DNA of 64,000 bases from Cyanidioschyzon merolae (Eukaryota). The notes below the pieces were generated by a model. The model was given only the letters and a program-made list of their open reading frames with translations. It was not told where the DNA came from and did not search any database. Location of the stretch: NCBI GenBank assembly GCA_000091205.1, contig AP006500.2. One strand, given 5' to 3'. Both the position numbers and the translations under genes were made by a program. Of this stretch, positions 2,880 through 60,000 are shown piece after piece. The first letter of the stretch is position 1, and every line of letters starts with the position of its first letter.

Positions 2880-3200
2880 AGCTTCGACACTGAAAGTGCT
2901 GTCATACGGGCTTGTGGATTCTCACAGAACGCCAGGATGCTCGGTCGTCGTTTCCGATTGGCTGCTTTGACCTGCTGCCGCTGGAATTCGATACGTCACT
3001 GGAATGCAGATGATTCGCGACAACCTCGAACTGTTCTTCGTCCAATAAACGATATCATTATTCGATGCAAGTGTACGAGCGTCCGCTCCTCGAATTTCCT
3101 TCCTTGTGGCATGCCCATATCCTGCGTTCTTCATGTGATCGATCTCTCTCTGATTCAACCCATATCATAGGCAGAATACTTCGCAATAATGGATTGATGC
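2880..3200. repeat. Degenerate partial copy of dispersed repeat family R4 (the sequence that forms the inverted-repeat arms at 33.9-37.8 kb)
   Basis: Read by eye, 2985-3100 matches the right-arm segment 36600-36720 (ctggaattcg...gattcgcgac...aaataa..atatc.ttattcgatgca). The antisense ORF 2922-3158 repeats the arm-ORF peptide ...ASNNDI.Y..K...R.SRI...PV..RIPA... Confidence 0.45.
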
Positions 3201-10791: not shown

Positions 10792-10884
10792 GGCCAGTTA
10801 GCGTGCGGTTGGCTGTACTGGAGCAGCGTCCTTTTTCGACAGCGTACTAGTGACACACAAACAGAACTCACTACACCGACACAG

Positions 10885-19189: not shown

Positions 19190-19440
19190 AGGAGGTGGTG
19201 GTGGTTGCGGAGACAGCACGCTATACTATTCAGGTAGGTAGGTACGCTCTCGGCACACCGGGAGATCCAGAATGCGTCGAGGCCATTGCTGGATATGCCC
19301 ATCTTAGAACGAAAAGAGAAGGACAGCACGCTATACGATTCAGGCAGGTAGGTACGCTCTCGGCACACCGGGAGCTCCAGAATGCGTCGAGGCCATCGCT
19401 GGATATGCCCATCTTAGAACGAAAAGAGAAGGAGTTCTTC
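19190..19440. repeat. Tandem duplication, ~110 bp x2
   Basis: cagcacgctata..attcagg.aggtaggtacgctctcggcacaccgggag.tccagaatgcgtcgaggccat.gctggatatgcccatcttagaacgaaaagagaagga occurs twice, starting near 19214 and 19324. Confidence 0.6.
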
Positions 19441-20189
19441 TTGCGAACACCAGCGAACATGCTAAAGTTTCGGTTCAGTTCCACTATGATCAGCATAAGC
19501 CTGCGCGGGCTCTTTCCTGCGACTGCTTTCTTCCCGATTCCTTTATTTCCAGCTTAAAGTGCATCGGTCTCTCATGTGCTGCCAGCACCGTTGTCAGCAG
19601 TTCAAGGTTCTGGATCCTGGCGTTGGAGTCTCGATGACGCTATTGCCAGCTGTTGTCGACGCATTTCATGCACGGGCAAAAGTTGCGATCGATGCAGTAC
19701 GTACGATTTTTCATCTCCACCGTATAAAGCCTCGGTGCGCCGTTCGCAGCCGCTACACTTGACAATCGTCAGGTGTTGCCGTATTTCCACTGCACATCCT
19801 CTTGCTCAGCGGGCCGCATGTGGCGCGTGAACGCTTACTTCATCGCTTGGCACATGTCGTTGACGGGTCCAGAAGGCCCTCCTTGATACCTCCCTGGCTT
19901 TTCCCGCCATATGCCGCATGCGACGATCACGGGCTTCCTCTGGGCGTTCCGGTGGCGAGTACTTTGTTCGCAACACAGCCACGCGCACGCTGTACGATTC
20001 GGTAGAAGAGTTTCGGAAGGCGATTTCGTCCGTGCGAGAACGAGACCGAGGTAGAAAGTCGAGGTCAGACAACGTGACGAGATCATTCGATCCGGCTGCG
20101 CTTCGAGCTTTCAGCGGCGATACGCGACTTCCAATGGACATGATCCCTGCGATGACTGAATTCTGAGTGCGACACTCCTTTCCATGGAA

Positions 20190-20340
20190 GCAGAAGCGCC
20201 GAAAAGCCTCGGATGGCGTATCCTGTAAACGGTACCATGCTCATGTGGAATCCGGTTTGATCGATAGCGAAGAAAAACGAAGGATTCGTTTTTCGAACGG
20301 AATCGATTATTATATGACGTGATGATTTCAGCGGACATTC
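20190..20340. repeat. Small dispersed repeat R3 (second copy at 41960-42100)
   Basis: c.tcgga.ggcgta.cc…catgctc.tgt…tcga.agc…aacggaatcgattatt..gacgtga…tcag is shared between 20190-20340 and 41960-42100. Confidence 0.4.
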
Positions 20341-20559
20341 GATGTGAGTTTCTGGAGCAGTCGTCAAGCGACCACGTCGAGGTTTCTTTTCGTCAGTATA
20401 GGAGCGTGAATCGCTGCGCCTGCGACTTGCCCAGATCTTAGCGATGAAAAACTTGAAGCCTATTTGATTTGCGCATGTCACCTGTGAGGACGGAGACGCG
20501 TGGAGGATAACGCGTTCTGGTAAAATAATGAGGCAAGTTATTTTGCGAGTCCTTGTTCA

Positions 20560-21000
20560 CGAGCGATGCAGGTTATCTCGATTCGTACGACGGTACGAGT
20601 TCTAGCGGCAAGGCGTCGAAGAAGCCTCCCCGAAAATACGACCGAGAATGCTGAAACCACGCATGTATCCGTTCGTCTTTATTGATGTTTTTCGATTCCC
20701 GAAGTTGTCCATTTGAAACCAAGGATTCCTCGAACTCGTACCCTCTCTGTGCCACTACAGTCTCATTGTCGCTCCGTCAGACAAACACATTTTCTCGGCA
20801 ATCTCCTCCCCTCTTCTTCTTCTTTCCCGTCACTTGCTCTTCTTGGCTCGACGGTCGCCCAGAAGAATATTATTTTCGATTTTTCCTGCAGCCGGCCGCA
20901 CAGGGCCTCCAGGATCACTTACTTTTATGTCCATAATTTTCCCTTGGATTTTTTATCTCTTCAATTGAATACATTCTTTAGACCCTTAGGTGAGAACCTT
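20560..21000 (-). mobile_element. Second internally deleted Fanzor-family derivative; same deletion junction as 10885-12130, more degenerate
   Basis: 20740-20990 aligns base-for-base in pattern with 11220-11470 (…aaggattcctcga…ctgtgccactacagtctc…cctcttctt…cacttgctcttctt…ccggc.gccgg…ttttcccttggatttttt…), spanning the junction between the N-terminal and C-terminal regions. The 3' portion at 20560-20700 is a weak match to the RE. Confidence 0.5.
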
Positions 21001-21048
21001 TCCGGGACGAGAAGAACTTGCAGAAGAAAGCCGACATGGGCGTCGGAG

Positions 21049-21420
21049 TCATCGTATGGTGAACGCTTGCGCGATTCGCCCAGTGGAGCGATCATTATGT
21101 TTCACGATAGAAAACATTCGTTCGATGGCATTGTACCACAGAGTGTACGGAGGAATGAAAAGCAGGTCCATGTTGGATCGAACCAGCAAATGCTCGAACG
21201 TAGGGGTAATAGTGAAATACCACGCAGTCCAATAGAAGGACATCGTCAGACGTCAGGGAAAAGTCTTCTAGGACTCGATAAAGTGGGGTTGTTGTGTGAG
21301 CCTTCTCTACGAGAGAAACTTAGGCCGCCAAATAAATCCACTGCAGTTAGAATAGATGATGTCGTCCCTTTTTCGAGTTCGATTGTACGTACATCGTGCT
21401 CCCTGCTCCGCGAGTACACA
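21049..21420 (-). pseudogene. Degenerate Tc1/mariner(IS630)-like DDE transposase fragment
   Basis: Minus-strand ORF 21049-21243 encodes ...FEHLLVRSNMDLLFIPPYTLWYNAIERMFSIVKHN..., resembling the Tc1/mariner C-terminal signature (…H.S…FLE.NNIELL.WPP.SPDLNPIEN.W…K). Another frame upstream reads ...DDIIYSNCSGFIWRPK..., resembling the first D/E block (V.WSDES.F). No intact ORF remains. Confidence 0.35.
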
Positions 21421-24600: not shown

Positions 24601-24614
24601 ATCGGGTACACGAA

Positions 24615-27350
24615 CGTCTTACAAGATAAACGCTGCTGCGGCCAGAAGTGTACAGTAGTGGCGAGAAACGCGCCCTAGACAAGACCTCTCCAAGTGACGT
24701 GCAGACGCCTCCCAGACTTTTTGGACCGGCCACCAACTACTGATTCCATTTTTTTCTCATATTAGTCCACTTTGAGAGGTTCTCCCACAAAATTCTCTCG
24801 TGTTCAGCTCTGGAGGTCTCGTCTCCAACACCGCACATCTCCTTATATTGACAGCGGCATTAAAGTCTCTGTTCACGAATTCCATACGTTTCTTGCCATC
24901 ATTGGTTGTACTTACTAATGCAAGTATTCCTCGAACTTTCGCTCCCCTTTCCATTCGCTCTACCGTCAGCGCCCCGTACGTTTTCATATCCTCAGGGATC
25001 CGCTGGCACTTTTCCATCTCCACTCTCTGAAGTGTATATCCCAACTCATGGTGTTTATAGAATGTTCGAAACTTATCTTTTGGTATCGTAACGAAACGTC
25101 GTGCCCACTCCTTGTACGTTCTTGTCGTTGGGGCTGGGGTACACCCTTTTTGGGTCACCCAGCGCCCTGCTCCGTACGCTACTACCAGCCTGTGACTCTT
25201 GTCGTCCTCCAAGGCGCTCAACTCATTAAAGAACTTGGCGAATGCACGCTGCTTCCCACTGTATAGATTCATACGCAGACGAGCCCAGCGGGGCTTTGAA
25301 TATTCTTTCCACATCTCCTCGTCATGAGCAGCCTGGGTTTCCATGAATTCCCGAAAGGCTCGAAAAACCGCCCCGCGGTTTGTCACTTTGCTGAACTCCT
25401 CACGGATATCGAACTCCGGGCTGATTTCTTTCAATGGGCCATGAAGGACGCTGGAGTTGATAGTCACAAAATGTGACTTGACGTTGCATAACGGAACGAC
25501 ATTGAAGCGCTTCCCCATTAGGGCAGCCTTCCGTCTCTCCCACTCCTCATTTTCTTCCTCATCCCGCATCATCTCCGCCTTGCGTTTGAGTTCTCGGTCC
25601 AAAAACACGAAATACGGCAGGATGAGGCGAAAGTATCTTTCCTTATATTTTTTCAACTCTGATATCTTTTCTGCTGGATTAGCCAGCCCAAGTACAAGAC
25701 GATCCTCTTGAAAAAGCGCACGGATTACAGAAGCTTCACTCGTATTCTCGTTTGACACTTTCTTGTCGACAAATTCGATCTCATCTTCATGCTGGCCATT
25801 GTTTTTGATACCATTGATAATCGCCCATATTGCTTTGCGAGAGAAGACCGGGTACAGCGCAAACACGGCGCGTATCATGAAACGTTCGAGGTTCATCGTC
25901 GAATGGTTCTTCAGGTTCGTGATGTACTTCATCGCCCCGTATGTGCAAATACGCGAGTCACCCTTGTATCGAGTACCCTCGAGGCTGTAAAACGGACGTT
26001 TTTCGTGAAGAGCGTGAACCCGCTCATTTTCCCTGCGCGTTTCCCCTGTGCCAAACATCAGCTGGCGAGTAGAGGTCTTGTCGAAAAACTCGTCTGGAAT
26101 CTCGACTGTTTCCATGTGCGTCACGTTGCGATACATCTCCCTCGCCAAATGCATCAGTCCTGACGACGCCTTAACAATGCTCTTGGAGCACGAGTCGACA
26201 CGGTTGCGGATGGCGTCTCGCAACTTTTCCTTGTACGAATCCTTCACACGTTTAAGAAGACAGGCTTTCGCCACCATCTCGTCGTACTGTTGCCTTTCGT
26301 ACAGCTTGTTCGTCTTCTCTTGTACCTCTGGACTCTGTACTGATTGTCGTCTTTTTCTGGCAGCTGGCGACACTGCGCCTCCAGGATCCTCTACTTCCTT
26401 TTCTATACGTTTCCTTTTTGTATTTGTTTTTTTTTTCTTGAAAAAGAGCGCATTTTTGAACGCTTCTTCTACAAACCAGCAAAAATAACTTGACCCCAGT
26501 CTGTTGAGGGTTAAAACGCAATCGAACTGAAAACGATGCTTTGCTACGACTACAACGCAAACACATCTTTTTCGGTGGAGCAAAACTCTATATATCAGGA
26601 TCGCGTTTCCCTTCCACAGCGACATTTACGTCGTGCCTCGTGAGTGCCAGTTCTCGAGGTGCGCGTATCGACCGCGCCATGGATAAAAGAATAGAAACGA
26701 GTCATGAAGTAGCAGCTCGATAACAATTTCTTTCCCCTCTACGGTAGGCGTTAGATGGGGAAAGTTTCTAAGCTTTCGAAAGTTCACCTTAGAGGCGGAA
26801 AAGCGCGCGAGCGGGACGAATTTCCCAGTCTCATGCTTCATGCTCCCTCCAGTGCCCAGCGCTGTAGCGAGATATAAGCAGCTTGTCCGAAACGCAGTTT
26901 ATTCTTGGACTCTGAACGGGTAGCCTGCGTCTGGTCGTCGCGCTGGTCCCAGTGGACTCCTAGCGTATCGCTTCGCGCAGCCGCAGCCGGTAGGTCTGTC
27001 CGCGCCGTTTCCAGGTTCCCAGAATGATAACGAATCCCGACCCCGTATCAGATGAACCCTGCCTCGATCCGGCACCCTCTGTGGTATGGTAAAGCCTTTC
27101 TGTCTCCGTGCTGCATCCGTTCCAGCGGTAGAAGCGCCACGGCGAGTGCTCAAAGCAGGTAATCGGCGCATGATAGAACATTCGAAACGACCGGTGCACC
27201 CGAAAGAATACACCAGTAATGGAACTTGGAGGTAGTTGCCTTATGATGGACAATTACATGAATCCTAATACCCGTCCCGCAATCTGGTATCCCTTATCAA
27301 TGAAGACGTTTCTTCATCGAAAAAAGATCAGCGGTACTGCTTCGAGCAGC
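24615..27350 (-). mobile_element. Fanzor/TnpB-like element, copy A: RE, 622-aa ORF, ~380-bp conserved spacer and ~0.45-kb 5' module R2
   Basis: Conserved along its whole length with 57040-60300 in inverted orientation. The 3' non-coding block 24615-24757 matches 60095-60300 and 10885-11045. The spacer 26550-26930 and R2 26930-27350 match the reverse complement of 57040-57940. Confidence 0.6.
24757..26625 (-). CDS. Fanzor/TnpB-like (OrfB_IS605-type RuvC) protein, intact 622-aa ORF, copy A
   Basis: C-terminal RuvC-III signature ...KKRMEFVNRDFNAAVNIRRCAV... (RDxNAAxNI, about 24847-24885). N-terminal lysine-rich NLS-like tract FFKKKKTNTKRKRIEKE. Collinear with the frameshifted paralog at 57950-60095. 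Relative to that paralog it lacks, in frame, the ~130-aa segment carrying the RuvC-I-like strand. The true start is uncertain because the ORF extends ~75 nt past the conserved 5' boundary of the element. Confidence 0.7.
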   Translation of the reverse strand: MSLWKGNAILIYRVLLHRKRCVCVVVVAKHRFQFDCVLTLNRLGSSYFCWFVEEAFKNALFFKKKKTNTKRKRIEKEVEDPGGAVSPAARKRRQSVQSPEVQEKTNKLYERQQYDEMVAKACLLKRVKDSYKEKLRDAIRNRVDSCSKSIVKASSGLMHLAREMYRNVTHMETVEIPDEFFDKTSTRQLMFGTGETRRENERVHALHEKRPFYSLEGTRYKGDSRICTYGAMKYITNLKNHSTMNLERFMIRAVFALYPVFSRKAIWAIINGIKNNGQHEDEIEFVDKKVSNENTSEASVIRALFQEDRLVLGLANPAEKISELKKYKERYFRLILPYFVFLDRELKRKAEMMRDEEENEEWERRKAALMGKRFNVVPLCNVKSHFVTINSSVLHGPLKEISPEFDIREEFSKVTNRGAVFRAFREFMETQAAHDEEMWKEYSKPRWARLRMNLYSGKQRAFAKFFNELSALEDDKSHRLVVAYGAGRWVTQKGCTPAPTTRTYKEWARRFVTIPKDKFRTFYKHHELGYTLQRVEMEKCQRIPEDMKTYGALTVERMERGAKVRGILALVSTTNDGKKRMEFVNRDFNAAVNIRRCAVLETRPPELNTREFCGRTSQSGLI

Positions 27351-32997: not shown

Positions 32998-33907
32998 AGC
33001 GTTCGACATCGCTATGTGCGTTGAGATACTTGACCTGGGACTCGCACACATGGGCACGCGTGAGCGACTCCGCGTGTCCCATAGAGATATGTATCCAAGC
33101 CGCCTCGATCCTCGAGAGGATCATCTGGTTTGCGACTCGTGTTCCTTGCCGTTCCCTTTGAGTATATACCCGCTATTCACATGTTATGCTTCGTATGCTG
33201 CGCTACAATGTTTCCCCTTTGGGTGTTCGTGGCTGCATCGATTTTCGCCATAGCGCGCCAGGGCGCAGGTGGGCGCGCGGGCTCGTTCGGAACGTCAACG
33301 AGATGCGTTTCCCAGCTTCGCGTCGCCGACAGCAGCAGTGTCCGAGCGAACGGCGCAGCTGTTACAGCATTAGCTTTGGCGTCAGTTGCTCGCTCAAGTT
33401 CATGTTTTTGAATCACTGAGTCCCCGTATGGGAGCGCCACGGGCGGCTGTCCGCATCCTGAGGACTTGCACGAGGCAACGTGCCTGCCGAGCGTCACCGA
33501 GTCTGCGTCCGTCTGGAGCATACCTAGGGCATCTGTATCCCAGAGATGGGCGTATCTCGTCGGGACCGTCAGCCGCCGGTGGTATCCGAACGATCCACTG
33601 GATGGCAACGCGAGGAGTGCGTCTCGACGACACGCAACGCTTGACGGTAGCTGCACTGCCGCACTCGGTCTCTTTCGTTGTGTGCAGCGCCCCGATTCTA
33701 CTCGGCATTGAGAACATACGCTAATCTAACGATGGCATTAGCTGGCAATGGTCATACCAAACGATGCACCCGTGCGCGGTTTCGTAGAAGCGGCCGCAAG
33801 CGAGCGATTACCGTGATGCGCTCCCGGTTCACATCGAGCGTCACATGCCTGGTAATGCGCCTGGTACCGATGATGCGTATCCGAATCGTTTCAGCGTCGG
33901 GGTCTAG

Positions 33908-35505
33908 ATTGGTGTCAGCATAAAATGGAGCAGGTCCACGAATACTGGCTAGCTCTCTAAAAAATGGGCCTCTTCTCCTGGCCGTCAGCGCCAGCCACTG
34001 TGGGATTTTTCCGTGACTGCTTCTTGTTTTATGTTTCTTGTATCTGAAATGAAAAACCGCGGTCTGTCCTTTTACTCTAGATCGGTTGTCACTAGTCGAT
34101 GGATATTGAGGAACACGTCCAAGCGCCGATGTGGCCGATTCAAGCTGTTATCGACGAATATCATAGACACTCGATCGTTGTGAGCTACGCTTCACTCGCC
34201 ATTTTCATGTTATTTATACAGAGCCCCAGTGCGTCCTTCGCGGCGGTGGCGCTTAACTCTTTTCAGATGTTCCTATACGCGCACCAAACATCCGCGGGCT
34301 TCTCCTCCTTCTTCTTCGAGCACCGCCACGTGACACGGGAACGCTTGCTTCGTCCCTAACCACACGAACTTGACGGGTAGCGTGGGGTTCCTTCGATGTC
34401 TCACTCCGTTTCCGCGCCTCAGTGCTGTACCCTAGGATGACGGGCGTCGTCGTCGGCAATCTCCTCGGCGAGTGTGCTGTTCGCAGGACACGAAAGCGTA
34501 GGCTGCCCCATTCGGCTGCGGATTTGTGGAACGCGATATTGACCATGACGAAACAGTGTCTGGAAGGAAACCCGGGCCTGACGAAGCACTCGAGAGATCC
34601 AGTTCCATCTACGCTCCGTTCGTGCAGCGGATTTGTGGAACGCGATACTGACCATGACGAAACAGTGTCTGGAAGGAAACCCGGGCCTGACGAAGCACTC
34701 GAGAGATCCAGTTCCATCTACGCTCCGTTCGTGCAGCGGATTTGTGGAACGCGATATTGACCATGACGAAACAGTGCCTGGAAGGAAACCCAGGCCTGAC
34801 GAAGCACTCGAGAGATCCAGTTCCATCTACGCTCCGTTCGTGCAGCGCGGTGAAGCAGCCTCCGATAGAAGCGATCGCTGCGATAACGCAAGTCCGAGTC
34901 CAAGACACTTCTCCATGCAAACCGAAGACACGCGGGCCTCTACGAGCATACCCCGTGCAGCGTCGCACGCTGTTGTTGGCTCGCGCTCCACCGATAGCGT
35001 CAAAACGGGTAGGAATTGTTGTTCGGTCGATTTCAGCTAATGGAGGCGACAAGGTCAGTGAGCTTACGTTATGAGCTTGTACATACGACGTTCAGGGACA
35101 GCATCGACTTTTTCGTTTCCACGTCAATCCACCAGCGCCAACGCCTGCACCAACGAGTTGCTTTGAACGAGAACGATCGAAAACTTGAGCAGTGTCTGTG
35201 CTGCGAGCCTGCTATACGTCGGGCAAGGACAGGTGCGGCGGCTTGTACGCATGCATCGAATAACGATATCCGTTATTTGAGGAAGCCTTGTCTGAGGGCG
35301 TCGCGAATCGTCTCGACCCCAGTGCCGTCACGAATTCCAGCAACGACGAATTGAACGGGAGACACTGCAACAGAGACCGACCGAGACTCCTACAACTGCG
35401 TATCGGTTCGTATGCTCTTATTGCTGAACTTCAAATGTTGAGGCCGTGCTTCTAAAAAATCTTCGGAAAACTATCGAATGGTTAGAATGGAGCGAGCGGC
35501 TCAAT
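33908..35505. repeat. Left arm of large inverted repeat (R4 family element) with internal 109-bp tandem sub-repeats
   Basis: Near-identical reverse complement of 36425-37812. Arm ORFs 35016-35354(+) and 36589-36927(-) differ at 2 of 112 aa; 34099-34359(+) and 37366-37626(-) are almost identical. The outer ends match (ggtctagattggtgtcagcataaaatggagcaggtccacgaatactggctagctc…). Confidence 0.85.
34506..34860. repeat. 109-bp tandem repeat, ~3.3 copies, inside the left IR arm
   Basis: Unit cgtgcagcggatttgtggaacgcgata.tgaccatgacgaaacagtg.ctggaaggaaacc.gggcctgacgaagcactcgagagatccagttccatctacgctccgtt. Identical ORF starts at 34633 and 34742 (period 109). The right arm carries about two fewer copies, which accounts for the ~210-bp difference in arm length. 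Confidence 0.7.
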
Positions 35506-35529
35506 GCTCTCTATTACGCCGAAACGACT

Positions 35530-36201
35530 CTAAAAGACGCACGTATTAGCTGCTGCTGTACCATCGGCCGAGGCAAAGCGCGTCCGAAGTTGTTCCCATA
35601 CTGCCGCTCTTTCCGATGAGACATCACCAACCGGACTGAGAAACATACTCAGTACCACCTCCTCGCCTGCCTTCTCGTGCCCGAGCAAGCGAATGATGTA
35701 TGTCGGTGTCGAGGGATCACCCCGACTGACGCCCTGTTCAAAACGCGCCGCACGAACGCCGCTGAGAAGAATGTGTAGATCCATGTTGATCGATAAGTCG
35801 ACGACGTTGGCGTAGAGGCCTCGGCGTGGCACCTCAGCGTAGAAGAGTTTCTCGAGGGTTGCGGTCGACTCAAGCACAACCGCCGCGTTCGTCGCGATAA
35901 AACGCAATTCGCCTAACTCCTTGCATGCTTCCAAAAACTCCACAAGACGAGGAAACTTTCCTGCAGCTTGGTCAACCGTCAACCGTCCGGGAGCTTGCGT
36001 TGCCATGCGCACAACGCTTCCCGTGCGCGCACGCCTTCGAACAGGGCGTGCGGCAGCCAGCGACGCGCTGTTCCAGGGCAGCAAACGCGTCCCATGAACG
36101 AGATCACGGTACACTGCCGCACAATGTAGTGCAGTATGTGTGCACCCACTAGATCTTGTGCGTTCTTCAAGCCTCAGCCTATTCAAGCCAGTGACAAACA
36201 T
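35530..36201 (-). CDS. ChuX/HutX-like heme-binding domain protein (tentative) with ~65-aa N-terminal extension
   Basis: 223-aa ORF filling almost the whole 919-bp spacer between the IR arms. The core ...LVEFLEACKELGELRFIATNAAVVLESTATLEKLFYAEVPRRGLYANVVDLSINMDLHILLSGVRAARFEQ...TYIIRLLGHEKAGEEVVLSMFL... has the conservation pattern of bacterial ChuX/HutX heme-utilisation proteins. This is recalled from memory and not searched. Confidence 0.35.
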   Translation of the reverse strand: MFVTGLNRLRLEERTRSSGCTHTALHCAAVYRDLVHGTRLLPWNSASLAAARPVRRRARTGSVVRMATQAPGRLTVDQAAGKFPRLVEFLEACKELGELRFIATNAAVVLESTATLEKLFYAEVPRRGLYANVVDLSINMDLHILLSGVRAARFEQGVSRGDPSTPTYIIRLLGHEKAGEEVVLSMFLSPVGDVSSERAAVWEQLRTRFASADGTAAANTCVF

Positions 36202-36424
36202 CGCTGGAGTTGATCGCAGTCCAAATGGAGATCAGCGAGTGCTGCAATCGATGTCAGCGCCGCTCGCGTTCCATCTTCGCAGGAGCCGTAGAGGAAATCG
36301 TACATGAATGTATATCTAGGGACAGTAATGGACATGAGCGCCTTCGCCCGATGCCGAGTCTCCAGCAGGGCCGGAGGGTCCGTGACGCACCGTCACTGTG
36401 ACGCGCACGTGGAACGCTAGACAC

Positions 36425-37812
36425 ACTCAGATGGAAGATGCAGCCGCTCGCTCCATTCTAACCATTCGATAGTTTTCCGAAGATTTTTTAGAAGCACGGC
36501 CTCAACATTTGAAGTTCAGCAATAAGAGCATACGAACCGATACGCAGTTGTAGGAGTCTCGGTCGGTCTCTGTTGCAGTGTCTCCCGTTCAATTCGTCGT
36601 TGCTGGAATTCGTGACGGCACTGGGGTCGAGACGATTCGCGACGCCCTCAGACAAGGCTTCCTCAAATAACGGATATCGTTATTCGATGCATGCGTACAA
36701 GCCGCCGCACCTGTCCTTGCCCGACGTATAGCAGGCTCGCAGCACAGACACTGCTCAAGTTTTCGATCGTTCTCGTTCAAAGCAACTCGTTGGTGCAGGC
36801 GTTGGCGCTGGTGGATTGACGTGGAAACGAAAAAGTCGATGCTGTCCCTGAACGTCATATGTACAAGCTCATGACGTAAGCTCACTGACCTAGTCGCCTC
36901 CATTAGCTGAAATCGACCGAACAACAATTCCTACGCGTTTTGACGCTATCGGTGGAGCGCGAGCCAGCAACAGCGTGCGACGCTGCACGGGGTATGCTCG
37001 TAGAGGCCCGCGTGTCTTCGGTTTGCATGGAGAAGTGTCTTGGACTCGGACTTGCGTTCTCGCAGCGATCGCTTCTATCGGAGGCTGCTTCACCGCGCTG
37101 CACGAACGGAGCGTAGATGGAACTGGATCTCTCGAGTGCTTCGTCAGGCCCGGGTTTCCTTCCAGACACTGTTTCGTCATGGTCAATATCGCGTTCTACA
37201 AATCCGCAGCCGAATGGGGCAGCCTACGCTTTCGTGTCCTGCGAACAGCACACTCGCCGAGGAGATTGCCGACGACGACGCCCGTCATCCTAGGGTACAG
37301 CACTGAGGCGCGGAAACGGAGTGAGACATCGAAGGAACCCCACGCTACCCGTCAAGGGCGTGTGGTTAGGGACGAAGCAAGCGTTCCCGTGTCACGTGGC
37401 GGTGCTCGAAGAAGAAGGAGGAGAAGCCCGCGGATGTTTGGTGCGCGTATAGGAACATCTGAAAAGAGTTAAGCGCCACCGCCGCGAAGGACGCACTGCG
37501 GCTCTGTATAAATAACATGAAAATGGCGAGTGAAGCGTAGCTCACAACGATCGAGTGTCTATGATATTCGTCGATAACAGCTTGAATCGGCCACATCGGC
37601 GCTTGGACGTGTTCCCCAATATCCATCGACTAGTGACAACCGATCTAGAGTAAAAGGACAGACCGCGGTTTTTCATTTCAGATACAAGAAACATAAAACA
37701 AGAAGCAGTCACGGAAAAATCCCACAGTGGCTGGCGCTGACGGCCAGGAGAAGAGGCCCATTTTTTAGAGAGCTAGCCAGTATTCGTGGACCTGCTCCAT
37801 TTTATGCTGACA
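36425..37812. repeat. Right arm of large inverted repeat (R4 family element)
   Basis: Reverse complement of 33908-35505. The inner end at 36425 (gccgctcgctccattctaaccattcgatag) mirrors 35470-35505. Confidence 0.85.
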
Positions 37813-38049
37813 CCGGTGTAACACGAGACACTTGCCACTGTCGCGCTTCTATCCGCGTGCATGTACGTATGCTCGAGTTACCCGCCCCGTTGCCGGCGAC
37901 GTAATGAACAAGCTCACTTGGCGCACACCTAAAGACTCCCAAGCATCACGCTTTGACAGGCTCTATTATACCACACTCTTTGAAAGAAACAGCGCCACAC
38001 ACAGTATCGACGAGATATCTCGTTGCTATGACCTGCGCGGCGAATACAG

Positions 38050-40782: not shown

Positions 40783-42239
40783 ACAGCCGCGTTAGAGGAC
40801 GAGTATTGGCCGTTGCAGTGTACGGCCTGGGCAACAGTGACCTACAGTGCAGAAAGAATCTTGTCCGAAGACGCAGCGAGAAAATCTAGAAACGTACTGG
40901 TCTGAGCTTGCTGAGAAACAAACGCAACTCGAACGAGATGCGTCCAGTAGCACTCGCGCTACCAGTTTTCGGGCAACGGAACGCTGCACCTCCGGAGCCG
41001 CTTCCAGGTTCTACCAGCAACACCAACACCTTGTAAATTTAGACCTGTGCTCGTCCGCAGCGTCAAGGCACGAATCCCCGACTGCCAGGCTTGGGTCCCC
41101 GGTGTTACGGCACGGAGGCGAGGTCGTCCACCGGTGTCTCCTGGGAAATCCTGTCTCACGCTAGCCCATACGCCCTTGTCAGTGTAAAAACGGGAACAAG
41201 TCGACGAATACCGGCGCAGACACTCATGGATGTGTCGCTTATCGATGTCATCAACACGTGTGTGCGCAAGCTTTTTCTGTGAATGCCTCCTTTTCCTCCC
41301 ATACATCTCCGGCTTTCAACACGGTAGTATGCTTTCTTTCCCATGTTTACGGTTGTCAGCAGTCGAGGAATGTTGATGGCATCTTTAAACTACCGATTTC
41401 TCCGTTTCCGGTGAAGGTCTGCGTATTTCATGTACAGGCCAAAATTGCGATCTATATTTCGCTTACCACATTCATCTTCGTTGTACACAGCCTCGGTGGG
41501 CTTTTCTGGCGATGACTATTTGCTATACACAGGCACGCTGATCTATCCATCCAGCTGAGGCGCTCCTTGGAACGCTGCCCCCATAGCGTATGAAGCCAAG
41601 CTTCATCGCCCGGTACACACTCTTGATGGGTTCAGAGAACTATTCTGGACGCCCTATTCGTTTTCCATGCCAGACGCGGCACCTCACCACCAGAGGCTTC
41701 CTCATGGGATTATCCTGTCGGCGAGTGCGCTGCCAGCTGCACATGCCAGAACAGGCTGTTCCGTTCGATCGAGCACTTGTGGAACGAGATTTTCTTCTTG
41801 ACAAATCAAGTACTGGAAGAAAAATTCCAGCAGGGCATCGTTTTGATCGATATCACTCCGTCTACGCCCTCTGGGTGCAAAGCGGTGACGCACGCGCCAC
41901 TGTTCATCGATCGCTGCGATGCCTCAAGACCGAGTCCAGGACCCGTGTTCATGCAAAAAAGAGAAACGAGCATCTCTCGGAGCGTACCCAGCGCCAGGTG
42001 ACATGCTCCTGTCGATTGCTGTTTCGTCGAGAGCTAAAAAGAGAAGTGGATTCCCCTCTCAACGGAATCGATTATTTGACGTGACAAGTTCAGAGAGCTC
42101 TTGGTATGAGCTCGTGAACCAGCCGTCATGGTTGCTTTGGGACAGAAAAATTTCAAGATTTGAAGAATACGTGATCTAGGCATTCAACTGGTTCATAAAG
42201 ACGAAGCGTGCAGTCTTCCATGTATGCATTGGATGGATG

Positions 42240-42450
42240 ATATCGGTTATTGTCACGAACCCGTGTTCCAGGGCGTCGTGAATCCTCTTGATCCCGGTGA
42301 CGTAACGAATTCCAGTGGGAAACCGCCAGAGAAGCCATTCCTGGAAACACAACCAGCAATCCTTGATCCCCTAGTGATGCACTGCGAATATCGCTGCTGA
42401 TCATCTAAAAACATACTTCGGAAGACTAGTTCGAAATGCAAGAACAAAGC
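42240..42450. repeat. Fragment of R4 (inner ~210 bp of the IR-arm element)
   Basis: Matches 35270-35505 (…gggcgtcg.gaatc.tct.ga.ccc.gtg.cgt.acgaattccag… …tctaaaaaa..cttcgga.aactat/gttcgaa… agcgagc…tca..gctc). Confidence 0.45.
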
Positions 42451-42600
42451 GAGCAGTTCAGAGCTCCATTTTATGTTCATACGGGTGCTGCGATCTGCCG
42501 TCGCTGCTCCTTGTTTGCTGCGAGTCATATCCTACCTGCATTTCTGTTTGCGTTCATCAACGTACTTCCAGCGTCCAAGTGACGGGGTTGCGTCTGCCTC

Positions 42601-49560: not shown

Positions 49561-51169
49561 GTCTCTTGGAACGTCAAGTCATCCGGAGGGACTAGTTGAT
49601 CTGGTTTCGTGCTTGCTGGCTGTGCGGGCATATGCAGGAGGCCGCAATTGATGCATCAACCCCACAGCATGAGAAAAACACTCCTGGATGCAACAGCGGA
49701 AGTGACCATTCTTACTCGTAGGCAAGCGCGCAGAGATGTCGTTCAGGGATTTCGGATCGTCGACGCTGACTGCGAATCCCCGATGAAGCGATTGATATCC
49801 GCGTCCATCATTGCGCATCGCACTGTGAGGCGTCACCAATCACCACCTTTGCTTCTCTTCACGTATACTAGTCCGCCAGTTCGTGTGATGCTGTGTGGTG
49901 CCGACTGCCTACCCTGAGCGCCGACGAGGACGTACACGGTGCCGCAGCGGATGCTGCACGGAGGCAAAGCGGCTTCGCCATACCCGTGAGAACGTCGGCT
50001 CTAAATGTGGTTTATTTGACGCGTCGTCAGGTATCTCCCTCATGTCGTGCCCTGACAGTCACTGTATGCGGACCTGACTTTACATCAAGATGCGTTGCAG
50101 AAAAGAAGCTGTCAGGAGGAATCCTGAAAACCCCGAGTCTTCGCTTCCCTGTATTGGGAGGCATGCAATGCGGTCTTGCGACTCGGGGGCCATTGCGCTG
50201 CACTCAGCAGCCAGGAGATGCACGAAACGCCGGGCGCGCATGTTCATGCAGTTCGCGGCTCTTTTTCGCCTAGAAAGACGAATAAGAGTTTGGTGCCAGA
50301 TAGCGCGCATTTTGGTCCAACCAGTGGGCCTCCAATTGTCAGTTCTGCACCCAAAATAAGCGAACGCTCATGAGCATCTATAGTGACATCCACGAGGTGT
50401 GATTGCTCGAACAGCCAGCTTCGTTCCTGTGTCCGAACGCGAACACTGCAAAAGCGAGTCTCGCCGAGCATTGGGAGTTACGTCTCCCCTGCAGAAGCAG
50501 TATGATTCCCTGCGAGCATGTAATTTTTCGATGCAACACAAGGCCCGGACGTGCTAGACTTCACCGATTCGCTCTTTAGCGAGCCAGACGGTTCCCATGG
50601 GAACCTCTGACCACCCCAATGACTCCCGCCAAACGTTTCATGTCTCTACTCGGTGGTTCTTCTAATGGGATGCGAGGCCAACGTTGAAGATCCTGTTCTT
50701 TCGAAATCGGCATTTGCATTCTTTGCCTTGAACCGTTCGTTAGAGATGTCGAGAAAAGAGTCAGTCCCAGAAACCAACTGGTATATATCCACTCCAAAGC
50801 CATACTTGAGGAAAATCTGCCTCCACTAGACCCAAACGCTTTTTCGATACCTTGGGATGCACGCCATCATCCGGTTGAGCCGGGGGCGCGTGCTGGGCCT
50901 CTTGGCCCTTGTACGACGCGCTGCAGTCTGCTGCAATGACTTCCAACGGGGGTGTATAGGATTTACATCCGAGAGCTTCCGTGCTGGGTGCTCTGCCGAG
51001 CATCCCGACACGATTCGCATCGACCTGTTGACTGGGGTCTGCATTCGCGAAGCGAGTGCGAGGCTCATGCCCCACCATTCGACGCCCCAGGTGACCGCCT
51101 TGATGATGCACATCCTAATTGACCCGATGCAGACTCCCAGCGACATCCCTATGGGTCCGATAAGAACCT

Positions 51170-51455
51170 GCATGCACGAGCTGAGCGTTTCTTGATCTTG
51201 GCAATCTCCTCTCCTATATATACACACTTTCATCCAGTGTGCATGCACGAGCTGAGCGTTTCTTGATCTTGGCAATCTGCTCTCCTATATATACACACTT
51301 TCATCCAGTGTGCATGCACGAGCTGAGCGATTCTTGATCTTGGCAATCTGCTCTCCTATATATACACACTTTCATCCAGTGTGCATGCACGAGCTGAGCG
51401 TTTCTTGATCTTGGCAATCTTCTCTCCTATATATACACACTTTCATCCAGCATCG
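51170..51455. repeat. 71-bp tandem repeat x4 with TATA-like core, immediately upstream of the oxidoreductase gene
   Basis: Unit gcatgcacgagctgagcg.ttcttgatcttggcaatct.ctctcctatatatacacactttcatccagtgt. Copies start at 51170, 51241, 51312 and 51383, giving an exact period of 71 with 1-2 substitutions per copy. Confidence 0.85.
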
Positions 51456-51462
51456 ACGTGAG

Positions 51463-52728
51463 TTGTACCAGGGCGCGGCGGGATTCGGCGTTGCCTCGCG
51501 AGCATCGCACTATCCGAAGATCGGCACTCGAGCTGCGCGTCCGAGGTGCTCCACAGCAGCTTCTAAGGTTCTGGCACAGCCTACGATGCGTATGGAACAG
51601 CCAGCAGCGTTTCTGAGTGGCAAACTACAACCCTTGTGCCTAGATCGCAAGTTCCAGTTGCGCGTGAGCGGGTCACGGCAACAGTTTCGGGGCCGCCGCC
51701 GACCCATTCTCGTCGCCCGGGTCGGGATCGGCGTCATCGGTGCAGGCCGCATAGGACAGGTACATGCAGCAACGATAGCTCGTCTGATGAATGCAGAGCT
51801 ACGAGGTATTGCTGATCCAATTGAAGCAGCTGGGCGTAAGGTGGCCGAGAGTTTCCAGACAGCGTACTTTCCAGACTATCGTACGCTGCTAGAGGACCCC
51901 GATGTACAGGGTGTCGTCATCGGCTCGCCAACGCCGTTTCACGCGGAACAAATGATAGCTGCAGCCGAAGCCGGCAAGCATATATTTTGTGAAAAGCCTA
52001 TCAGCAACGATCTCGCGACGATCGACCGTTGTTTAGAGGTGGTACGCACCAGCGGCGTCAAACTCCTGGTGGGGTTCCAGCGGCGCTTCGATAGTAACTT
52101 TAGCTACGTACGTGACCAGATTGAGCGTGGCACCATTGGGCAAGTGCGTATGTTTCACATCCATTCAAGAGATCCGGCGCCACCTCCGGCGGAATACTTG
52201 GCGAAAAGCGGAGGTATTTTCCTCGACATGTGTTCCCATGATTACGATATGGCGCGTTTTGTGACGGGCCAGGAAATCGAGGAGGTTTACGTGGTTGGCA
52301 AGGCCTTCGATCCCGAGGCACAGGCCGCAAATGATCTCGACACCCACATAACGGTACTGCGGATGTCGGGCGGGGTCATGGGCACCATCGACAACTCTCG
52401 TCGTTGCGCATACGGCTACGACCAGCGTATCGAGGTGTTTGGCTCCGACGGTTCGTTAATCGGTCAAAACAAGAGCAAGCACTCCGTAGTAGCCGCCGGT
52501 CAAGATGGGTATCATCATGGACGACCTTTTGATTTCTTTATGGATCGCTATCTGGAGGCGTACGGGAACATCATGACCGCATTTGTGCAGATGATCGAGC
52601 GCGGCACAGACCCCCCTGTCTCGGGGTTAGACGGTCGCGCGCCGGTGCTCGCTGCGCTGGCCGCAGCCCGAAGTGTCAAGGAGAATCGACCAGTGAAACT
52701 CAGCGAAGTCGATATACGCATGCGCTAG
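51463..52728 (+). CDS. Gfo/Idh/MocA-family NAD(P)-dependent oxidoreductase (myo-inositol 2-dehydrogenase-like)
   Basis: Rossmann N-terminus ...IGVIGAGRIGQVHAATIARL...GIADP..E.AGRKVAE.......Y...LLEDPDVQGVVIGSPTPFHAEQMIAAAEAGKHIFCEKPIS... Typical IolG/Gfo C-terminal alpha/beta domain. The ~75-aa N-terminal extension may be a targeting peptide, or the true start may be internal. Confidence 0.8.
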   Translation: MYQGAAGFGVASRASHYPKIGTRAARPRCSTAASKVLAQPTMRMEQPAAFLSGKLQPLCLDRKFQLRVSGSRQQFRGRRRPILVARVGIGVIGAGRIGQVHAATIARLMNAELRGIADPIEAAGRKVAESFQTAYFPDYRTLLEDPDVQGVVIGSPTPFHAEQMIAAAEAGKHIFCEKPISNDLATIDRCLEVVRTSGVKLLVGFQRRFDSNFSYVRDQIERGTIGQVRMFHIHSRDPAPPPAEYLAKSGGIFLDMCSHDYDMARFVTGQEIEEVYVVGKAFDPEAQAANDLDTHITVLRMSGGVMGTIDNSRRCAYGYDQRIEVFGSDGSLIGQNKSKHSVVAAGQDGYHHGRPFDFFMDRYLEAYGNIMTAFVQMIERGTDPPVSGLDGRAPVLAALAAARSVKENRPVKLSEVDIRMR

Positions 52729-55700
52729 GAATGAATGCAATCGCCCCTAAACCAGTATCAGGTTCAGAACTGGAACGCCGAACTGTTCGCTCTGTTGCTT
52801 CCTTGCAGTGCATTCCGAAATTTTGCTTGGACGTACAGACTCGACATTCGATGGGCAGCAATGGGAGCCTTTGGGCGCACACACAGTTTTAGGATTCTTC
52901 GTCGTCATTTCCGAGTGGCACCTTCGACGCTTTGCTGCTGCCATTGGTTGCACGTGACCTTTACCAAGGTGACTCGCCACGTTATTCACCAAGAATTCGT
53001 CATATAACCCGTATCACTATCCAGTTCAATCGCACAAATTTCGACACTTCTCCTTTCGAAAAGTTGGGTATGCTCCAATCAAATACTCCTGAACCTTTAG
53101 GTGTCTATCTTACAGAGCAGCTCGTGGGCGCTGCCATTCGCACCGCTGGATTGATGGGGAAAAACACCCGAACGTCTTCCTTTTGACGCCTTGTGCACAT
53201 GTACATGCTGAAAGTTCACCGAAATTCTCATATTAGATACTTGATTCGTTTCGAAGGCCAAATTATTTTTTGCGGCAAGTAACGAAGCTGCATTCGGCAG
53301 CAACATGATATCTCTCACGGGATATGCTCCCAGAGGCTCCCGTCTATTTTGTTTGCAGGTAAAAGGGTCTTGGATTCAGAACTGATTCATCGCTGTGAAT
53401 GCTTCCAGCGGAGCATGCTTTATCGCTTGGCATGGAGCAGACGTCGAGGGATCGAAATTACGCAAGCGAACCTTCACCCTGGACTCCCTTCCGTTTCCTG
53501 GTTCATCGTGGGCAACATCACATTCCGGGGATTCTATCGAATGAAATGTTGTCCGCTTGTGTTTGCAGCGAACAGAGTACTCGCTGACGGGGTCGCCCCG
53601 AAGGAGCCCATAGCTGTAGGTTACGGTAGCGAGCGCGCAATCGGGTAAGAGAGTCTGTGAAAGCCCTCTGCATCCGTCCAGGGCATCTACGGGGCGATGA
53701 GGCAACCATTACGCGCCACAGGACGGCCCTAGGAGGAGGTCATTTGGTTTGCATATGGGAAGATTCGACCTCAACCATACGTGACCGCTGCAGAGGGCGC
53801 ACAGCAGCTGGATAAAATGAAACTGAAAGTGGCACGCGAAGGGTACACTCCAACTACCGCCTGTGCATGAAATGCGGCACTAGGAGCCGGAAGCTGCGAA
53901 ACTGAGACTTGAAGGCGCCAATCAGCCTCCTTTGACTGTTGAGAACAGGGCTGGGGCGAACGGAGAGACCGGCGTATTGAAAGCGGGAGATACGAGAGAG
54001 TAAATGAAGCAGTCGCTAAACAAACGCGCAAAGCTTGTTGTTGATGTCAGTGGAACGAGAACCGAACTTGAGCGTGGATGCCCCTGTTAGATGACCTCTC
54101 CTGTTTAGTTATACCGCGATGCCAAACAAAGACACGCCGAAACTTTGGTGACGAGAAATCCCGTAAGAAGACTGCGAATGTTTTGATGGAGTATTGGTAC
54201 GATGGCACATACTAATGTCTCTCGGGGACGCCATTGGATCCAAACTTTGGGGATCCTAGGCTCATCTAAGACGCCACTATCAGAGTAGGTCGTGCGGAAC
54301 GTGGTCGCGGTGCAAAGTACGAGCGCCATACGGCATGTACTCTGGGGAGCGTAGAGCGACGCGGTTCGAGCTCATGGACACGAGGGGTCTTCGAGATGAT
54401 TGTGCCATCATGTCATCTAACAAGATCCACAGTATATGCAGATTTGCGGATCATTACGCTTTCTGCTGGAATCCTGCGGCATTTCAGACCGCATACGGGT
54501 ATTCATATCCGTGAACAAGCTGCAAAGTCGATGAAAGTGGTTGCCGCAATGGGACTCCCAGCTCATAGACGCTCCTCGATCCGAGAGAAATGCCCATATA
54601 TCTCGTAGTTCGATACCCGATTGGCTGTTGGCGCAAATACGAGGTTGCTCACGTACCGTCTAGCGTTCGATCGTGCGTCCTCATGAGGATTTTATGCTGG
54701 GAAAGCCAGCACAAGCACCGCTCAGGCGAACCAGCCTGAGTTGGGCGCTCTATCCTCCGTCATTTTCATTTCTATTCAATTTGAGTGGATTCGCGGAGGC
54801 CTGCCAACAGACCTCTCAAGCTGCAAGCGGGCACGTTACACGTTGTGCGCCTCCACCACTGAGTCTCTCGGACACAGGCACTGTTGCGTTATTCAGGTAT
54901 GTGGGCATCGATACAAGCTTCGCAATACAGCGGCATGGACGTGCAACTGCGCCAAACGACGGCGCGGTAGCATTCCGCAAGCCCTGTTCAGCAGAGCGAC
55001 CAGCGCTAGGCTGTTCGCGCATGAGACCTGGCGCTTTCCTAAACCCCGAGACCTTCATGAACGTCATCCGTGGACAAGACGAGGTGCGCATCAATCGAAT
55101 AAATGTCGAGCCAGACGTATCCTGCGCCCGCAAAAACTGGATACACGGGCATCAATGCCTGGAAGGCTCCATGTGCGAGACTCCCGCTATTTGACGTCCG
55201 GTATCTCCGCTACCTCCGATTCTACGACGAATGCTGCGCGGTCAGTCTACAGGAAGTTTTTAACTCGGGCCCCGGATCCGATATAGACTGGACGCGAACC
55301 ATGTCAAATGCCTCGCCTGGAAAATGCCTGAGTGTCACCTTCGTCAAGTACCACGGACCGAGCGAGGCGCGTTTGCAAATGGTGAACTGGTTGCGAGTCC
55401 TTAACAGCTCCACCGATGACTAGCTAATCTGTCAACACTGGATACGCCTCAACCGCGCTCTTCGTTCCGAATTCTGATGAGCTTCGGCATACGTCAAGGC
55501 GATCAGGCAAAGCGTCTTCATCGGCTAAGGAACTGTACTCCAGAGCGGGGGCTCGCAATCGCTCGTTGCCCAACAGTCCAGCACGCGAACCTCAGAGGAT
55601 CAGCATTCCATGTAGAATTCAGAATGCTGGAGGCGGCGCGTAGATGAAGACTAGGCTAGATATAAGCACTCACATCCACAAACAGATGGAAACGTTTGCG

Positions 55701-57039: not shown

Positions 57040-60000
57040 AGCTACTATCCTGCATCGGAACGAAGGACGCTCACCCGCGGTAGTGTCGCGCTTCTGATCC
57101 GCGCAGGCGCGTAAGCCGGCAGGAGTCGTTGCTGCATCGAGTTTTTTTCGATGACAGAGCGTTTCCATTGACCATGAATCCCCAATAGCGGGATGGGTAC
57201 TACGATTCATGTAATTCTCCATCATGACGCAACCTATCTCCAAGTTCCATTACCCATATTTCCTCTCAGGTATACTGGTCTTTTCCTTTGTTCTATCGTA
57301 TGCCAAGTGCCTGCAGTGAGCACCCACCGCAGCGCCTAAACCGCTTGTGCGGATGCTACACGGAGACAGAGTAGCTTTGTCATACCACTGAGGGCGTCGG
57401 CTCGAGGAATGCTACACCTGACACGGGATCAGGGCTACTTATCATTCTGGGAGTCTGGAAGCTGCGCAGGCAGGCGTACTGCCTGCGGCAGCGCAGAGCG
57501 ATATTCTTCGAGGACACCACGACCAGCGCGACGCCCAGACGCAGCATACCGCTCTGAGTCCCAGAATAAACTGCATTGCGGACGAGTTGCTCAGATCTCT
57601 CTGCATGACCAGGCTCCGAGAGGTCTATGAAGCACGAGCCTGGGAGAATCGTCCGACTCGCGGGACATTCCGCCCAGAAGGTAAACTTTCGTCAATATGG
57701 AAATCTTTGCTCCCCATGAATTTTTATCATTGACAGGGAAGGCAATTGTTATCTCGCTGCCAGTCAGTAGTGAGTCTCTGCTCTTCGTTCTATAGAGTAC
57801 AGTCGATAGGCGCACCCAGGAGATCTGCCAGGCACGAGGTACGACGTGGATATCGCCATTGAAGAGAAACGCGATCCTGATCATTAGCATGTTGTATACC
57901 GTACAAGGTGTATTTGCGTTGAAGTCGTAGCAACGTTTAGTCTTCAGTTCAGTTGTGTTCCAACCCCAAAGCAAGTATATACGAGCGATTTTTCGTGGTT
58001 TATAGCAGAAGCGTTCAAAGTGTGTTCTTTTTCGAAAATAAAAAAGGAAAGTTCTGGACGAAGAAGTGGAGGATCCTGGAGGCACGGTGTCGCCAGGTGG
58101 CGAAAAGAACGAAAAATAGTGCCGAGCAAAGATGAACAGGAGAAGAAGAAGAAGAAGCGAGAGCCAGACCTCAACGGCTGCAAGAAAGGCGACAGCATGA
58201 CGAGATGATAGTGAACGCCTGCCTTCTTGGATGTATCAAGGATCCGTACGAGCAGAAGATGCGAGAGACCACCAGAAGCCGTGTCGATTCCTACTCCAGG
58301 AGCGTGCGTAACACTTCTTTTTGGACTGAAGCATACGGTGAAGGAGATATACGATGACCTTACCGACACGAAAACAGTCGAGGTTCCGGAAGCGTTTTTT
58401 TTAACAAGACCCTCAGCCGCCACTTGATGCTTGGCACAGGGGGACGTCGAGGGAAAATGAGCGCATGTGCGTCCTCCATGAAAAATACCCCTACTAGGGT
58501 CTCAAAGGTACTCGTTACAGGGGTGACTCGCGTATTTTCGAATACAGGGCAAAAAAGTATCTCACGAACCTGAACAACCATATGATCATGAAGCTCGAAC
58601 GTTTCATGACACGCTCCATCGTTGCGCGCTACCCGGGCCTCTCTCGCAAAGGGATACGGGCCATCATCAATGGCGTCAGGAACGATAGTAAGAATGAACA
58701 GGAGATCGAATTCCTCGACGAGAAGACATCACACAGGAGAACGAATGAAGCTTCTGCAATCCGTACGGCAATTCAAGAGCACCGTCCGGTCTCGGAGCTG
58801 GTCAATCCAGCAGGAAATGTATCAGGTATGGAAAAAGAAAAGCAAAGATGTTATCCCCTAATCCTGCGCTATTTCGTGTGTTTGGACCGCGAACTCGATC
58901 CCAAGGCCAATATGGAGCTGGGTGTGGAACAAAATGTAGAGTCAGAGAAACGGAAGGGTATCCTAACGGGTAAGCGCTTTAGCGTTGTTGCGTTATGCAT
59001 CACCAAGTTCCATTTTGTAACAATCGACTCCAGAGTCCTCAACGGCATCATGAAGGAGGTCTGTCTGGAGTTCGATGTAAGGAAGATAGAGTTCACCAGT
59101 GAAAACCGGGAGACGTACTGGAAGAATATCTTCAATTTCAAACGTCTCAATACGTGCAAGCAAAAGGTATTCACTGGCATCATCGAAACCGATGGAGTAG
59201 CCATGTGTGTACACTCTCGGCGCTTGAAGGCAGATCGTCCAGTTCCGTCCTCGACTGCGCCCGTGGCGAAGCATGAAGAAAACAAGGAGGCTGGCCTTAC
59301 AACGCAGGAGGTACAGGAGAACGATTTTGTTGTTGGCACGGACCCTGGGAACACGAATATCGTAACCATCGCAGTACCCAAGCGTGCGGAAGATGATATC
59401 GACGGCAACTTACGTCAGAAGGACATCCGTCTTTGAAAGCTCACGACAGCTACATCTTACCGAGAATCAGGAAAACTGAATGCAAGGAAAAGAAATGAGA
59501 CGTGGAATGCAGGAGTGAAAGAGCACAAGGCAGCGATCAGCCAGGTGACGAGCCGAGGAGCGGACTTTGAAGCTTTTCGAGAGTTCATGAAAGTCCGCGC
59601 TGCTCTTGACGAGCCGCTGTCGAAAGAATCTACAAAGCCCCGGTGGGCTCGTCTGCTTAGAATCTTGTACTTTGGGAAGCAGCACGCATTTGCCAACTTC
59701 TTCAATGAGTTGAGCGCTCTCAAAGAGGACAAAATTCAGAGACTCGTGGTGGTATACGGAGCAGGGCATTGGATGACACGGAAAGGTAGCACACCAGCTC
59801 CATCGACACGAGCGTATAAGGAGTGCACACTGTGCTTCGTCATGATGTCGATAGATGGGTTCCGAACGTCGTATACATCCACCATGAGCTAGGGTGTGTA
59901 CTTGAGAGTGTCGAGATGGAAAAGTGCCAGCAGAGCACTGAGGATGTAGCAAACTACGGAGCGCTGACAGAGCACCTAACGGCATGGAGGGTGCGAGTTC

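Follow-up and report, generated by a model that had tools for sequence, protein, structure and literature searches.

A 64,000-nucleotide stretch of the nuclear genome of Cyanidioschyzon merolae 10D, a red alga from hot springs (contig AP006500.2 of GenBank assembly GCA_000091205.1; hereafter the window), contains a near-perfect inverted repeat (IR) whose two arms enclose a single gene, which codes for a protein related to the ChuX/HutX haem-utilisation family (Table 1). C. merolae is a model of the minimal, repeat-poor eukaryotic genome. From the sequence of the arms, their ends and their relatives we propose that the arms are probably two old, independent insertions of one dispersed repeat family, R4, the interiors of which have been homogenised by gene conversion from arm to arm; the two insertions are called R4-L and R4-R below.

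Globally aligned to the reverse complement of the right arm, the left arm has 11 substitutions in 1373 aligned nucleotides (99.2% identity) and a single 218-nt indel, equivalent to two extra 109-nt units in the left arm, and at both boundaries of the IR the identity falls from 100% to near random across one base. The initial annotation of the window had placed this repeat within 3–17 nt of the coordinates measured here and had put the identity of the arms at about 98%, slightly below the measured value. Its statement that the 112-aa open reading frames (ORFs) embedded in the arms, 35016–35354(+) and 36589–36927(-), differ at two residues was reproduced, and it was right in giving the spacer a single gene, but the length it gave, 919 bp, falls short of the measured one. 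Besides that ORF the spacer holds 29 nt past the stop codon and 240 nt 5' of the ATG. An assembly artefact, named at that time as something that could have produced the palindrome, is ruled out, as identical IR junctions recur in at least 11 independent metagenome contigs.

Table 1. Coordinates of the inverted repeat, its components and the R4 copies in the window
Feature	Position	Strand	Remarks
Left arm of IR	33911–35501	+	1591 nt; interior of R4-L, probably homogenised
Right arm of IR	36442–37814	-	1373 nt; interior of R4-R, probably homogenised
Spacer between arms	35502–36441	.	940 nt; host-derived part ~35531–36419
Spacer gene	35530–36201	-	223 aa; BAM82634.1, 'hypothetical protein, conserved'; weak ChuX/HutX haem-utilisation Pfam match
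R4-L, inferred full extent	33907–35530	+	TA at 33905–33906 and 35531–35532
R4-R, inferred full extent	36420–37818	-	TA at 36418–36419 and 37819–37820
Tandem array of 109-nt internal R4 segment	34515–34847	+	3 units, 97–98% alike
Decayed IS630-like transposase remnant (putative), left arm	34006–35339	-	reads outward from spacer
Decayed IS630-like transposase remnant (putative), right arm	36604–37719	+	stops, frameshifts; reads outward from spacer
Old R4 copy	2802–4151	-	~57% identical to arms
Old R4 copy	19399–20737	+	~56% identical to arms
Old R4 copy	41171–42479	+	~58% identical to arms
Old R4 copy	52762–54123	-	~57% identical to arms

Arms and element ends

Each arm is a full-length member of the dispersed R4 family of ~1.4 kb, of which six copies lie in the window and a seventh at an unrelated locus, on a separate Cyanidioschyzon-like metagenome contig (L014). 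The four old copies in the window were detected by nhmmer with one arm as query (E from 1e-35 to 1e-52); BLASTN within the window finds only fragments of the arm outside the IR, at 70–78% identity. Arm against old copy and old copy against old copy, R4 pairs are 56–58% identical with few indels, which makes the family star-like. The dispersed repeat recognised in the initial annotation is thus confirmed and extended: the fragments it listed at 2880–3200 and 42240–42450 are parts of full-length copies of ~57% identity, and R4 is not, as it might have been, a duplication confined to the IR.

Homology to the family does not stop where the similarity of the two arms stops, but runs past the IR boundaries by ~4 nt plus the TA on the outer side and by 22–29 nt on the inner side. 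In R4-L the inner 29 nt (35502–35530) lie outside the IR and are family-like, and they pair with the outer end of the element at 20 of 28 positions in a terminal inverted repeat (TIR; score 24 against a shuffle mean of 13.2, sd 2.7, z ~4). In R4-R the termini outside the IR comprise 22 nt (36420–36441) and 4 nt (37815–37818). When the 24 nt past the inner boundary are compared with the terminal segments of the four other copies, the left arm matches at 43 of 96 positions (P=0.0016) and the right arm at 37 of 96 (P=0.02); across tests the left inner flank gives P=0.0016–0.003, and the flanks of R4-R give P=0.02–0.03 (inner) and P=0.027 (outer). Over the same 24 nt no more than 8 positions (33%) agree between the arms. 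Each arm appears in this way to have its own old, diverged R4 terminus, with only the interiors alike, and such private, family-like termini in both arms argue for two old independent insertions with homogenised interiors.

The course of events that we favour would run as follows. Two R4 copies would have inserted independently and in opposite orientations, one landing right behind the stop codon of a ChuX/HutX-like gene that was already there, the other 218 nt upstream of that gene's start codon. Repeated conversion between the copies, ~0.9 kb apart in a genome that relies chiefly on homologous recombination for DNA repair, would then have kept their interiors near-identical by concerted evolution, presumably without a break since insertion; all other copies would meanwhile have decayed to ~57% identity. 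Since a conversion tract would be blocked at non-homologous flanks and go no further than the homology itself, the extreme termini of the elements would have escaped and diverged, which would account for IR ends that lie 4 nt and 22–29 nt inside the element ends. If the arms crossed over instead of converting one another, the spacer would be inverted with its gene, a change that would be nearly neutral because the same 1.4 kb flanks the gene on either side.

Several observations suit this account. The identities of 99.2% in the interior, 33% at the termini and ~57% to other R4 copies mean that the arms resemble each other far more closely than one would expect from how long ago they arose, and homologous recombination is highly efficient in C. 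merolae (PMC11376382). At three sites (arm positions 163, 509 and 1442) both arms of strain 10D have an allele that is found in none of the arms of six relatives, and five sites have a polymorphism that is located on one arm in some strains and on the opposite arm in others, an argument weakened by the fact that the relatives' arms come from short-read assemblies, which may collapse two arms into one.

That reservation is the first of a number of points that weigh against homogenisation of two old insertions. The likeness of the left-arm termini to the family rests on just ~24–30 nt (P ~0.002), and in the outer 4–10 nt flank of that arm it is not significant (P=0.28). TIRs are not significant in the other R4 copies or, when a profile of outer ends is set against the reverse-complemented inner ends, in the family as a whole, and for the latter reason the exact ends of the elements are only inferred ones. 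Had the arms been converted without interruption ever since an insertion of great age, the edges of the IR might be expected to have eroded by more than 4–29 nt. Finally, R4-R and the copy at 41171–42479(+) form a second inverted pair, 3.35 kb apart around an adaptin gene, which at ~57% identity is unhomogenised, and proximity alone is no guarantee of conversion.

The main rival is a recent partial inverted duplication, in which R4-R would be the only old resident and an inverted copy of its interior would have been newly inserted 3' of the gene, at a site free of R4, when replication or repair went wrong (by template switch, or by gap repair at an ectopic site). A divergence of just 0.8% with sharp boundaries is what such an event would leave; the flanks of the right arm continue the family homology on both sides, against the lack of significance at the left outer flank; and a 10-nt palindrome, ACACC/GGTGT, lies at the right outer junction. 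At a naive site, however, one would not expect a left inner flank that is R4-like and pairs with the outer terminus, nor a TA at the family's offset outside the left arm. It would, moreover, take a coincidence to place the boundaries of the duplicated piece as close as 4 and ~25 nt to the two ends of an element 1.4 kb long, and inspection of the arm junction sequences gave no useful microhomology, including at the left arm. We judge a recent duplication unlikely on balance, though it deserves to be kept in mind. Two recent R4 insertions are not supported, since the identity of the arms ends inside the termini and the termini differ between the arms; recent transposition fits poorly because the termini would then be identical.

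R4 as a repeat family

R4 copies as they now stand are non-coding, given that they have no codon (3-nt) periodicity and that tblastn matches are spread equally over all frames with none preferred. A transposase remnant is visible only in the family consensus, where the reverse strand holds the motifs DETGF...GYAPRGSR...MDKIAFRKS and an N-terminal helix-turn-helix (HTH)-like stretch. Weak but mutually consistent matches were obtained with the consensus: to Pfam DDE_3 (E=4.5e-4; 20.5 bits against a cut-off of 28.6) and, collinearly over aa 10–215, to the NCBIfam IS630 transposase (E=6e-4). In tblastn the consensus matched 150 plasmid records, all on the DDE region (best listed E=3e-3), the annotated records among those listed being of IS630 type in every case. 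All of these scores lie below curated cut-offs, as is to be expected of a consensus built from wrecked copies, though they agree with one another; even in the consensus there are 6–16 stops per frame. A TA is present at 5 of 6 outer and 4 of 5 inner termini, in an end register that is itself inferred from decayed copies, and the outer TA lies at the same offset past the IR or element boundary in 5 of 6 copies, both arms included.

Searches for something better preserved came back empty. The consensus has no match in a PDB sequence search, a homologous-protein search with it found no intact relative (the sole match, the ORF P0054, comes from another decayed copy), and a scan of stitched single copies gave no IS630 match and one weak match to guided_TnpB. 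We tentatively regard R4 as a decayed DNA transposon of ~1.4 kb and of IS630/Tc1-mariner type, consistent with the remark of Nozaki et al. 2007 (PMC1955436), who likened the class II elements of C. merolae to bacterial transposases. The earlier suggestion that both arms belong to one dispersed family of mobile elements is borne out by the R4 copies and by these IS630/DDE_3-like remnants, which came from the search of the consensus that the initial annotation had itself proposed.

The C-terminal remnants of R4, for example at 3865–4077(+), 37339–37719(+) and 53681–54004(+), have a conserved motif, CxxC...CMKC...DRD(L/M)NAAINILRLL, with weak matches to the Pfam Cas12f1-like TNB family (E=0.004) and to NCBIfam guided_TnpB (E=0.0035). 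The body of the remnant is nevertheless IS630-like. Perhaps R4 arose by deletion from an element with a TnpB/Fanzor gene beside its transposase; perhaps the likeness is a chance one.

The 109-nt sub-repeats that had been ascribed to both arms are present as an array in the left arm; the right arm and all four old R4 copies of the window have one unit each. Among metagenome relatives the number is one, two or three, as in a polymorphic minisatellite, and the triplication would be a young minisatellite expansion of the left arm that is yet to be copied to the right one. Further tandem repeats occur in the window and in a relative. At 19212–19431 a 110-nt tandem duplication (2 units, 96% identical) is made up of ~30 nt from the start of the 19.4-kb R4 copy and ~80 nt of its flank; at 51169–51521 a 71-nt tandem with ~4 units, three of them 98–99% identical, extends into the start of the ORF 51463–52728(+); and on the contig L013 of a relative described below a 112-nt tandem of 3 units (11010–11293) lies between a gene for a protein of ~650 aa and an ABC ATPase gene. 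The four units are no more similar to one another than shuffled sequences are, and minisatellites of ~110 nt are recurrent in Cyanidioschyzon/Cyanidiococcus-like genomes.

The spacer gene and its orientation

Genes in the window are intronless and on alternating strands, a tRNA scan of the window found nothing, GC content is ~55%, and the neighbours of the spacer gene include a cysA-type ABC ATPase (BAM82632.1) and a YEATS protein (BAM82630.1). Cyanidiococcus yangmingshanensis (L012) and a second, Cyanidioschyzon/Cyanidiococcus-like relative (L013) have the ChuX-like gene at the same syntenic position, and its orientation is likewise conserved. Read on the reverse strand of the window, the order in the relatives is prenyltransferase, FKBP, PHD, a ~285-aa protein, adaptin, ChuX-like, a ~650-aa protein and ABC ATPase, of which the prenyltransferase and FKBP genes are visible only in L012, since L013 starts at the PHD gene (FKBP was called only in L012). 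The orthologous regions of both relatives have intergenic spacers of 0.9–1.3 kb and neither an IR nor a match to R4. The orientation of the gene in 10D is thus the ancestral one, and the R4 copies here either were gained in the C. merolae lineage alone or have disappeared from the relatives.

At its inferred inner end R4-L touches or overlaps the gene's TAG stop codon (35530–35532), whose TA apparently served as the insertion site; the C-terminus of the protein, ...CVF, is unchanged relative to Cyanidiococcus. The ChuX/HutX-like domain is of bacterial type and stands behind a poorly conserved N-terminal extension of ~70 aa, possibly a targeting peptide. Homologues (P0048–P0053), down to 47% identity, were found only in Cyanidiococcus and in metagenome/Logan assemblies.

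Inverted copies of one transposon around a single gene, as in Tn10 and Tn5, together with tandem sub-repeats in one arm, might suggest that the whole is still mobile, whether as a Foldback-type element or because two recent R4 insertions act as a composite transposon and move the enclosed gene; both had been proposed in the initial annotation. This is now largely refuted, and we give it hardly any credence. The gene is no captured cargo, standing as it does between the same neighbours and in the same orientation in relatives free of the repeat; the transposase remnants are broken by stops and frameshifts, even the consensus being full of stops; and the identity of the arms stops short of the element termini, which differ between them. 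No direct repeat surrounds the structure, the outer flanks (...GGTCTAGATT and GGTGTAACAC...) having none in common, and the sole candidate for a target-site duplication (TSD) is the TA that accompanies each R4 element. The tandem units, on which the Foldback comparison rested, are confined to one arm, with 1–3 units among strains; the opposite arm has a single unit, and so do the old copies. An exact-match scan of the JGI metagenomes with the first 35 nt of the arm returned this locus only: no near-identical arm in another context, no second arm-spacer-arm unit, and no active near-identical R4 lineage is visible there. Nor is there any sign that the arm-spacer-arm unit ever moved.

Contigs that run from a flank through an entire arm to an end of the spacer number eleven in independent metagenome data, five of them arranged as in the window and six flipped, a count that is ambiguous because arbitrary paths through a collapsed repeat also predict 1:1. 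All four combinations of flank and spacer end are present among them, and all end at or soon after the second arm. These are apparently short-read assemblies (the ENA contig name is MEGAHIT-style), with reads that cannot span arms of 1.4 kb, and phasing of the contigs by single-nucleotide polymorphisms in the arms is no proof of inversion, a chimeric assembly path and a true crossover looking alike. The presence of both orientations is as flip-flop recombination would predict and is no more than suggestive of inversion, which we infer rather than demonstrate; the recombinogenic character ascribed to the structure in the initial annotation is supported in principle, with both orientations indeed found in metagenome assemblies and open to either explanation. 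That the locus is a nuclear flip-flop, in which frequent recombination keeps the arms identical and natural populations hold the ChuX-like segment in both orientations at comparable frequency, is a possibility that we put forward with some doubt. If true, it would make the locus a nuclear analogue of the plastid IR and a natural gauge of the rates of mitotic recombination and conversion in an alga usually considered asexual.

Selection might instead have kept the arms identical for a function, as a source of hairpin or antisense RNA or as an invertible switch of the ChuX-like gene. In related strains 11 of 11 bridged contigs have the IR, in both orientations, and the gene keeps identical flanks either way. 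Those same flanks, 1.4 kb long, mean that inversion leaves the regulatory context unchanged, so that the palindrome would be a poor switch; the sister genus has the same gene without the repeat; and an Rfam scan of the window found nothing. Argonaute and Dicer are reported to be absent from C. merolae (PMC11376382), which makes the source of small interfering RNA that had been envisaged for the hairpin unlikely. A selected palindrome is in our estimate very improbable, and nothing points to a regulatory or RNA-silencing role. As for the initial annotation as a whole, its observation was confirmed and its interpretation held in part, for the copies of a mobile element and not for a Foldback element, a composite cargo or an RNA source.

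Repeat content and comparison with known systems

A second decayed repeat family, of ~2.7–3.1 kb, is found at 24607–27332(+) and 57136–60241(-), in copies 72–75% identical, with fragments at 120–514, 5453–6107, 10880–11594, 20716–21100 and 49724–50278. It carries a 622-aa ORF, 24757–26625(-), which has no Pfam match and is absent from the protein collection. In size and behaviour it fits, and may be, the 'WSV486-like' interspersed repeat of 3.2 kb and 253 copies that Nozaki et al. 2007 (PMC1955436) described in C. merolae. R4 (~8.4 kb, ~13%) and this family (~8.5 kb, ~13%) together make up ~26% of the window, most of it missed by ordinary BLASTN and detected by nhmmer; the published figures for the genome are 0.7% transposons and 5% 'WSV' repeats. 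The repeat content of C. merolae may be underestimated, at least locally.

The locus is not a new kind of element but a small palindrome of a known type. Its interest lies in offering what is probably a clean natural case of concerted evolution between transposon copies and, if the inversion is real, a simple marker, testable by polymerase chain reaction (PCR), with which to follow mitotic recombination and the structure of populations among red algae of hot springs.

Taken singly, the R4 elements resemble the IS630/Tc1/mariner superfamily in their length of ~1.4 kb and the remnants of an HTH and a DDE_3-type core, and perhaps in the TA at their inferred ends and in TIRs of ~28 nt. They differ in that all copies seen are decayed, with every match under curated cut-offs, and in the CxxC...CxxC...DRDxNAAINI of the C-terminal remnant, which is closer to TnpB/Cas12f than to IS630. 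As a pair they bring to mind the composite transposons Tn10 and Tn5, two inverted IS630-like copies bracketing a single gene of bacterial (ChuX/HutX) type, whereas in C. merolae the elements are long dead, with ends that have diverged, and the gene still occupies its ancestral place in the chromosome; the Tn10-type transposon is an architectural look-alike, and the locus fails the functional tests of that family. With the Foldback (FB) elements of Drosophila the locus has in common long inverted arms, a short middle and sub-repeats in one arm. FB arms, in contrast, are largely arrays of sub-repeats on both sides, and the elements have a TSD and many copies; the C. merolae sub-repeat is ancestrally single-copy, there is no such duplication, and in the JGI metagenome scan the structure is unique.

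For the isomerisation to be expected the plastid inverted repeat would be the closest analogue, likewise a near-identical IR that is homogenised by recombination, with a single-copy segment expected in two orientations. The C. merolae locus is nuclear, its arms are far smaller and transposon-derived, and the evidence for isomers consists of the ambiguous 5 and 6 short-read contigs. In mechanism, if the arms are indeed converted by one another, the closest analogues would be the palindromes P1–P8 of the human/primate Y chromosome (PMC8600007), in which inverted arms more than 99% identical surround a unique spacer, identity is kept by intrachromosomal gene conversion long after the arms arose, and lineage-specific changes appear on both arms. 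Those arms measure from 9 kb to 1.45 Mb, against ~1.4 kb in C. merolae, and are gene-bearing duplications, whereas the arms described here are dead transposon copies with the sole gene in the spacer, and apparently go back to independent insertions rather than to one duplication.

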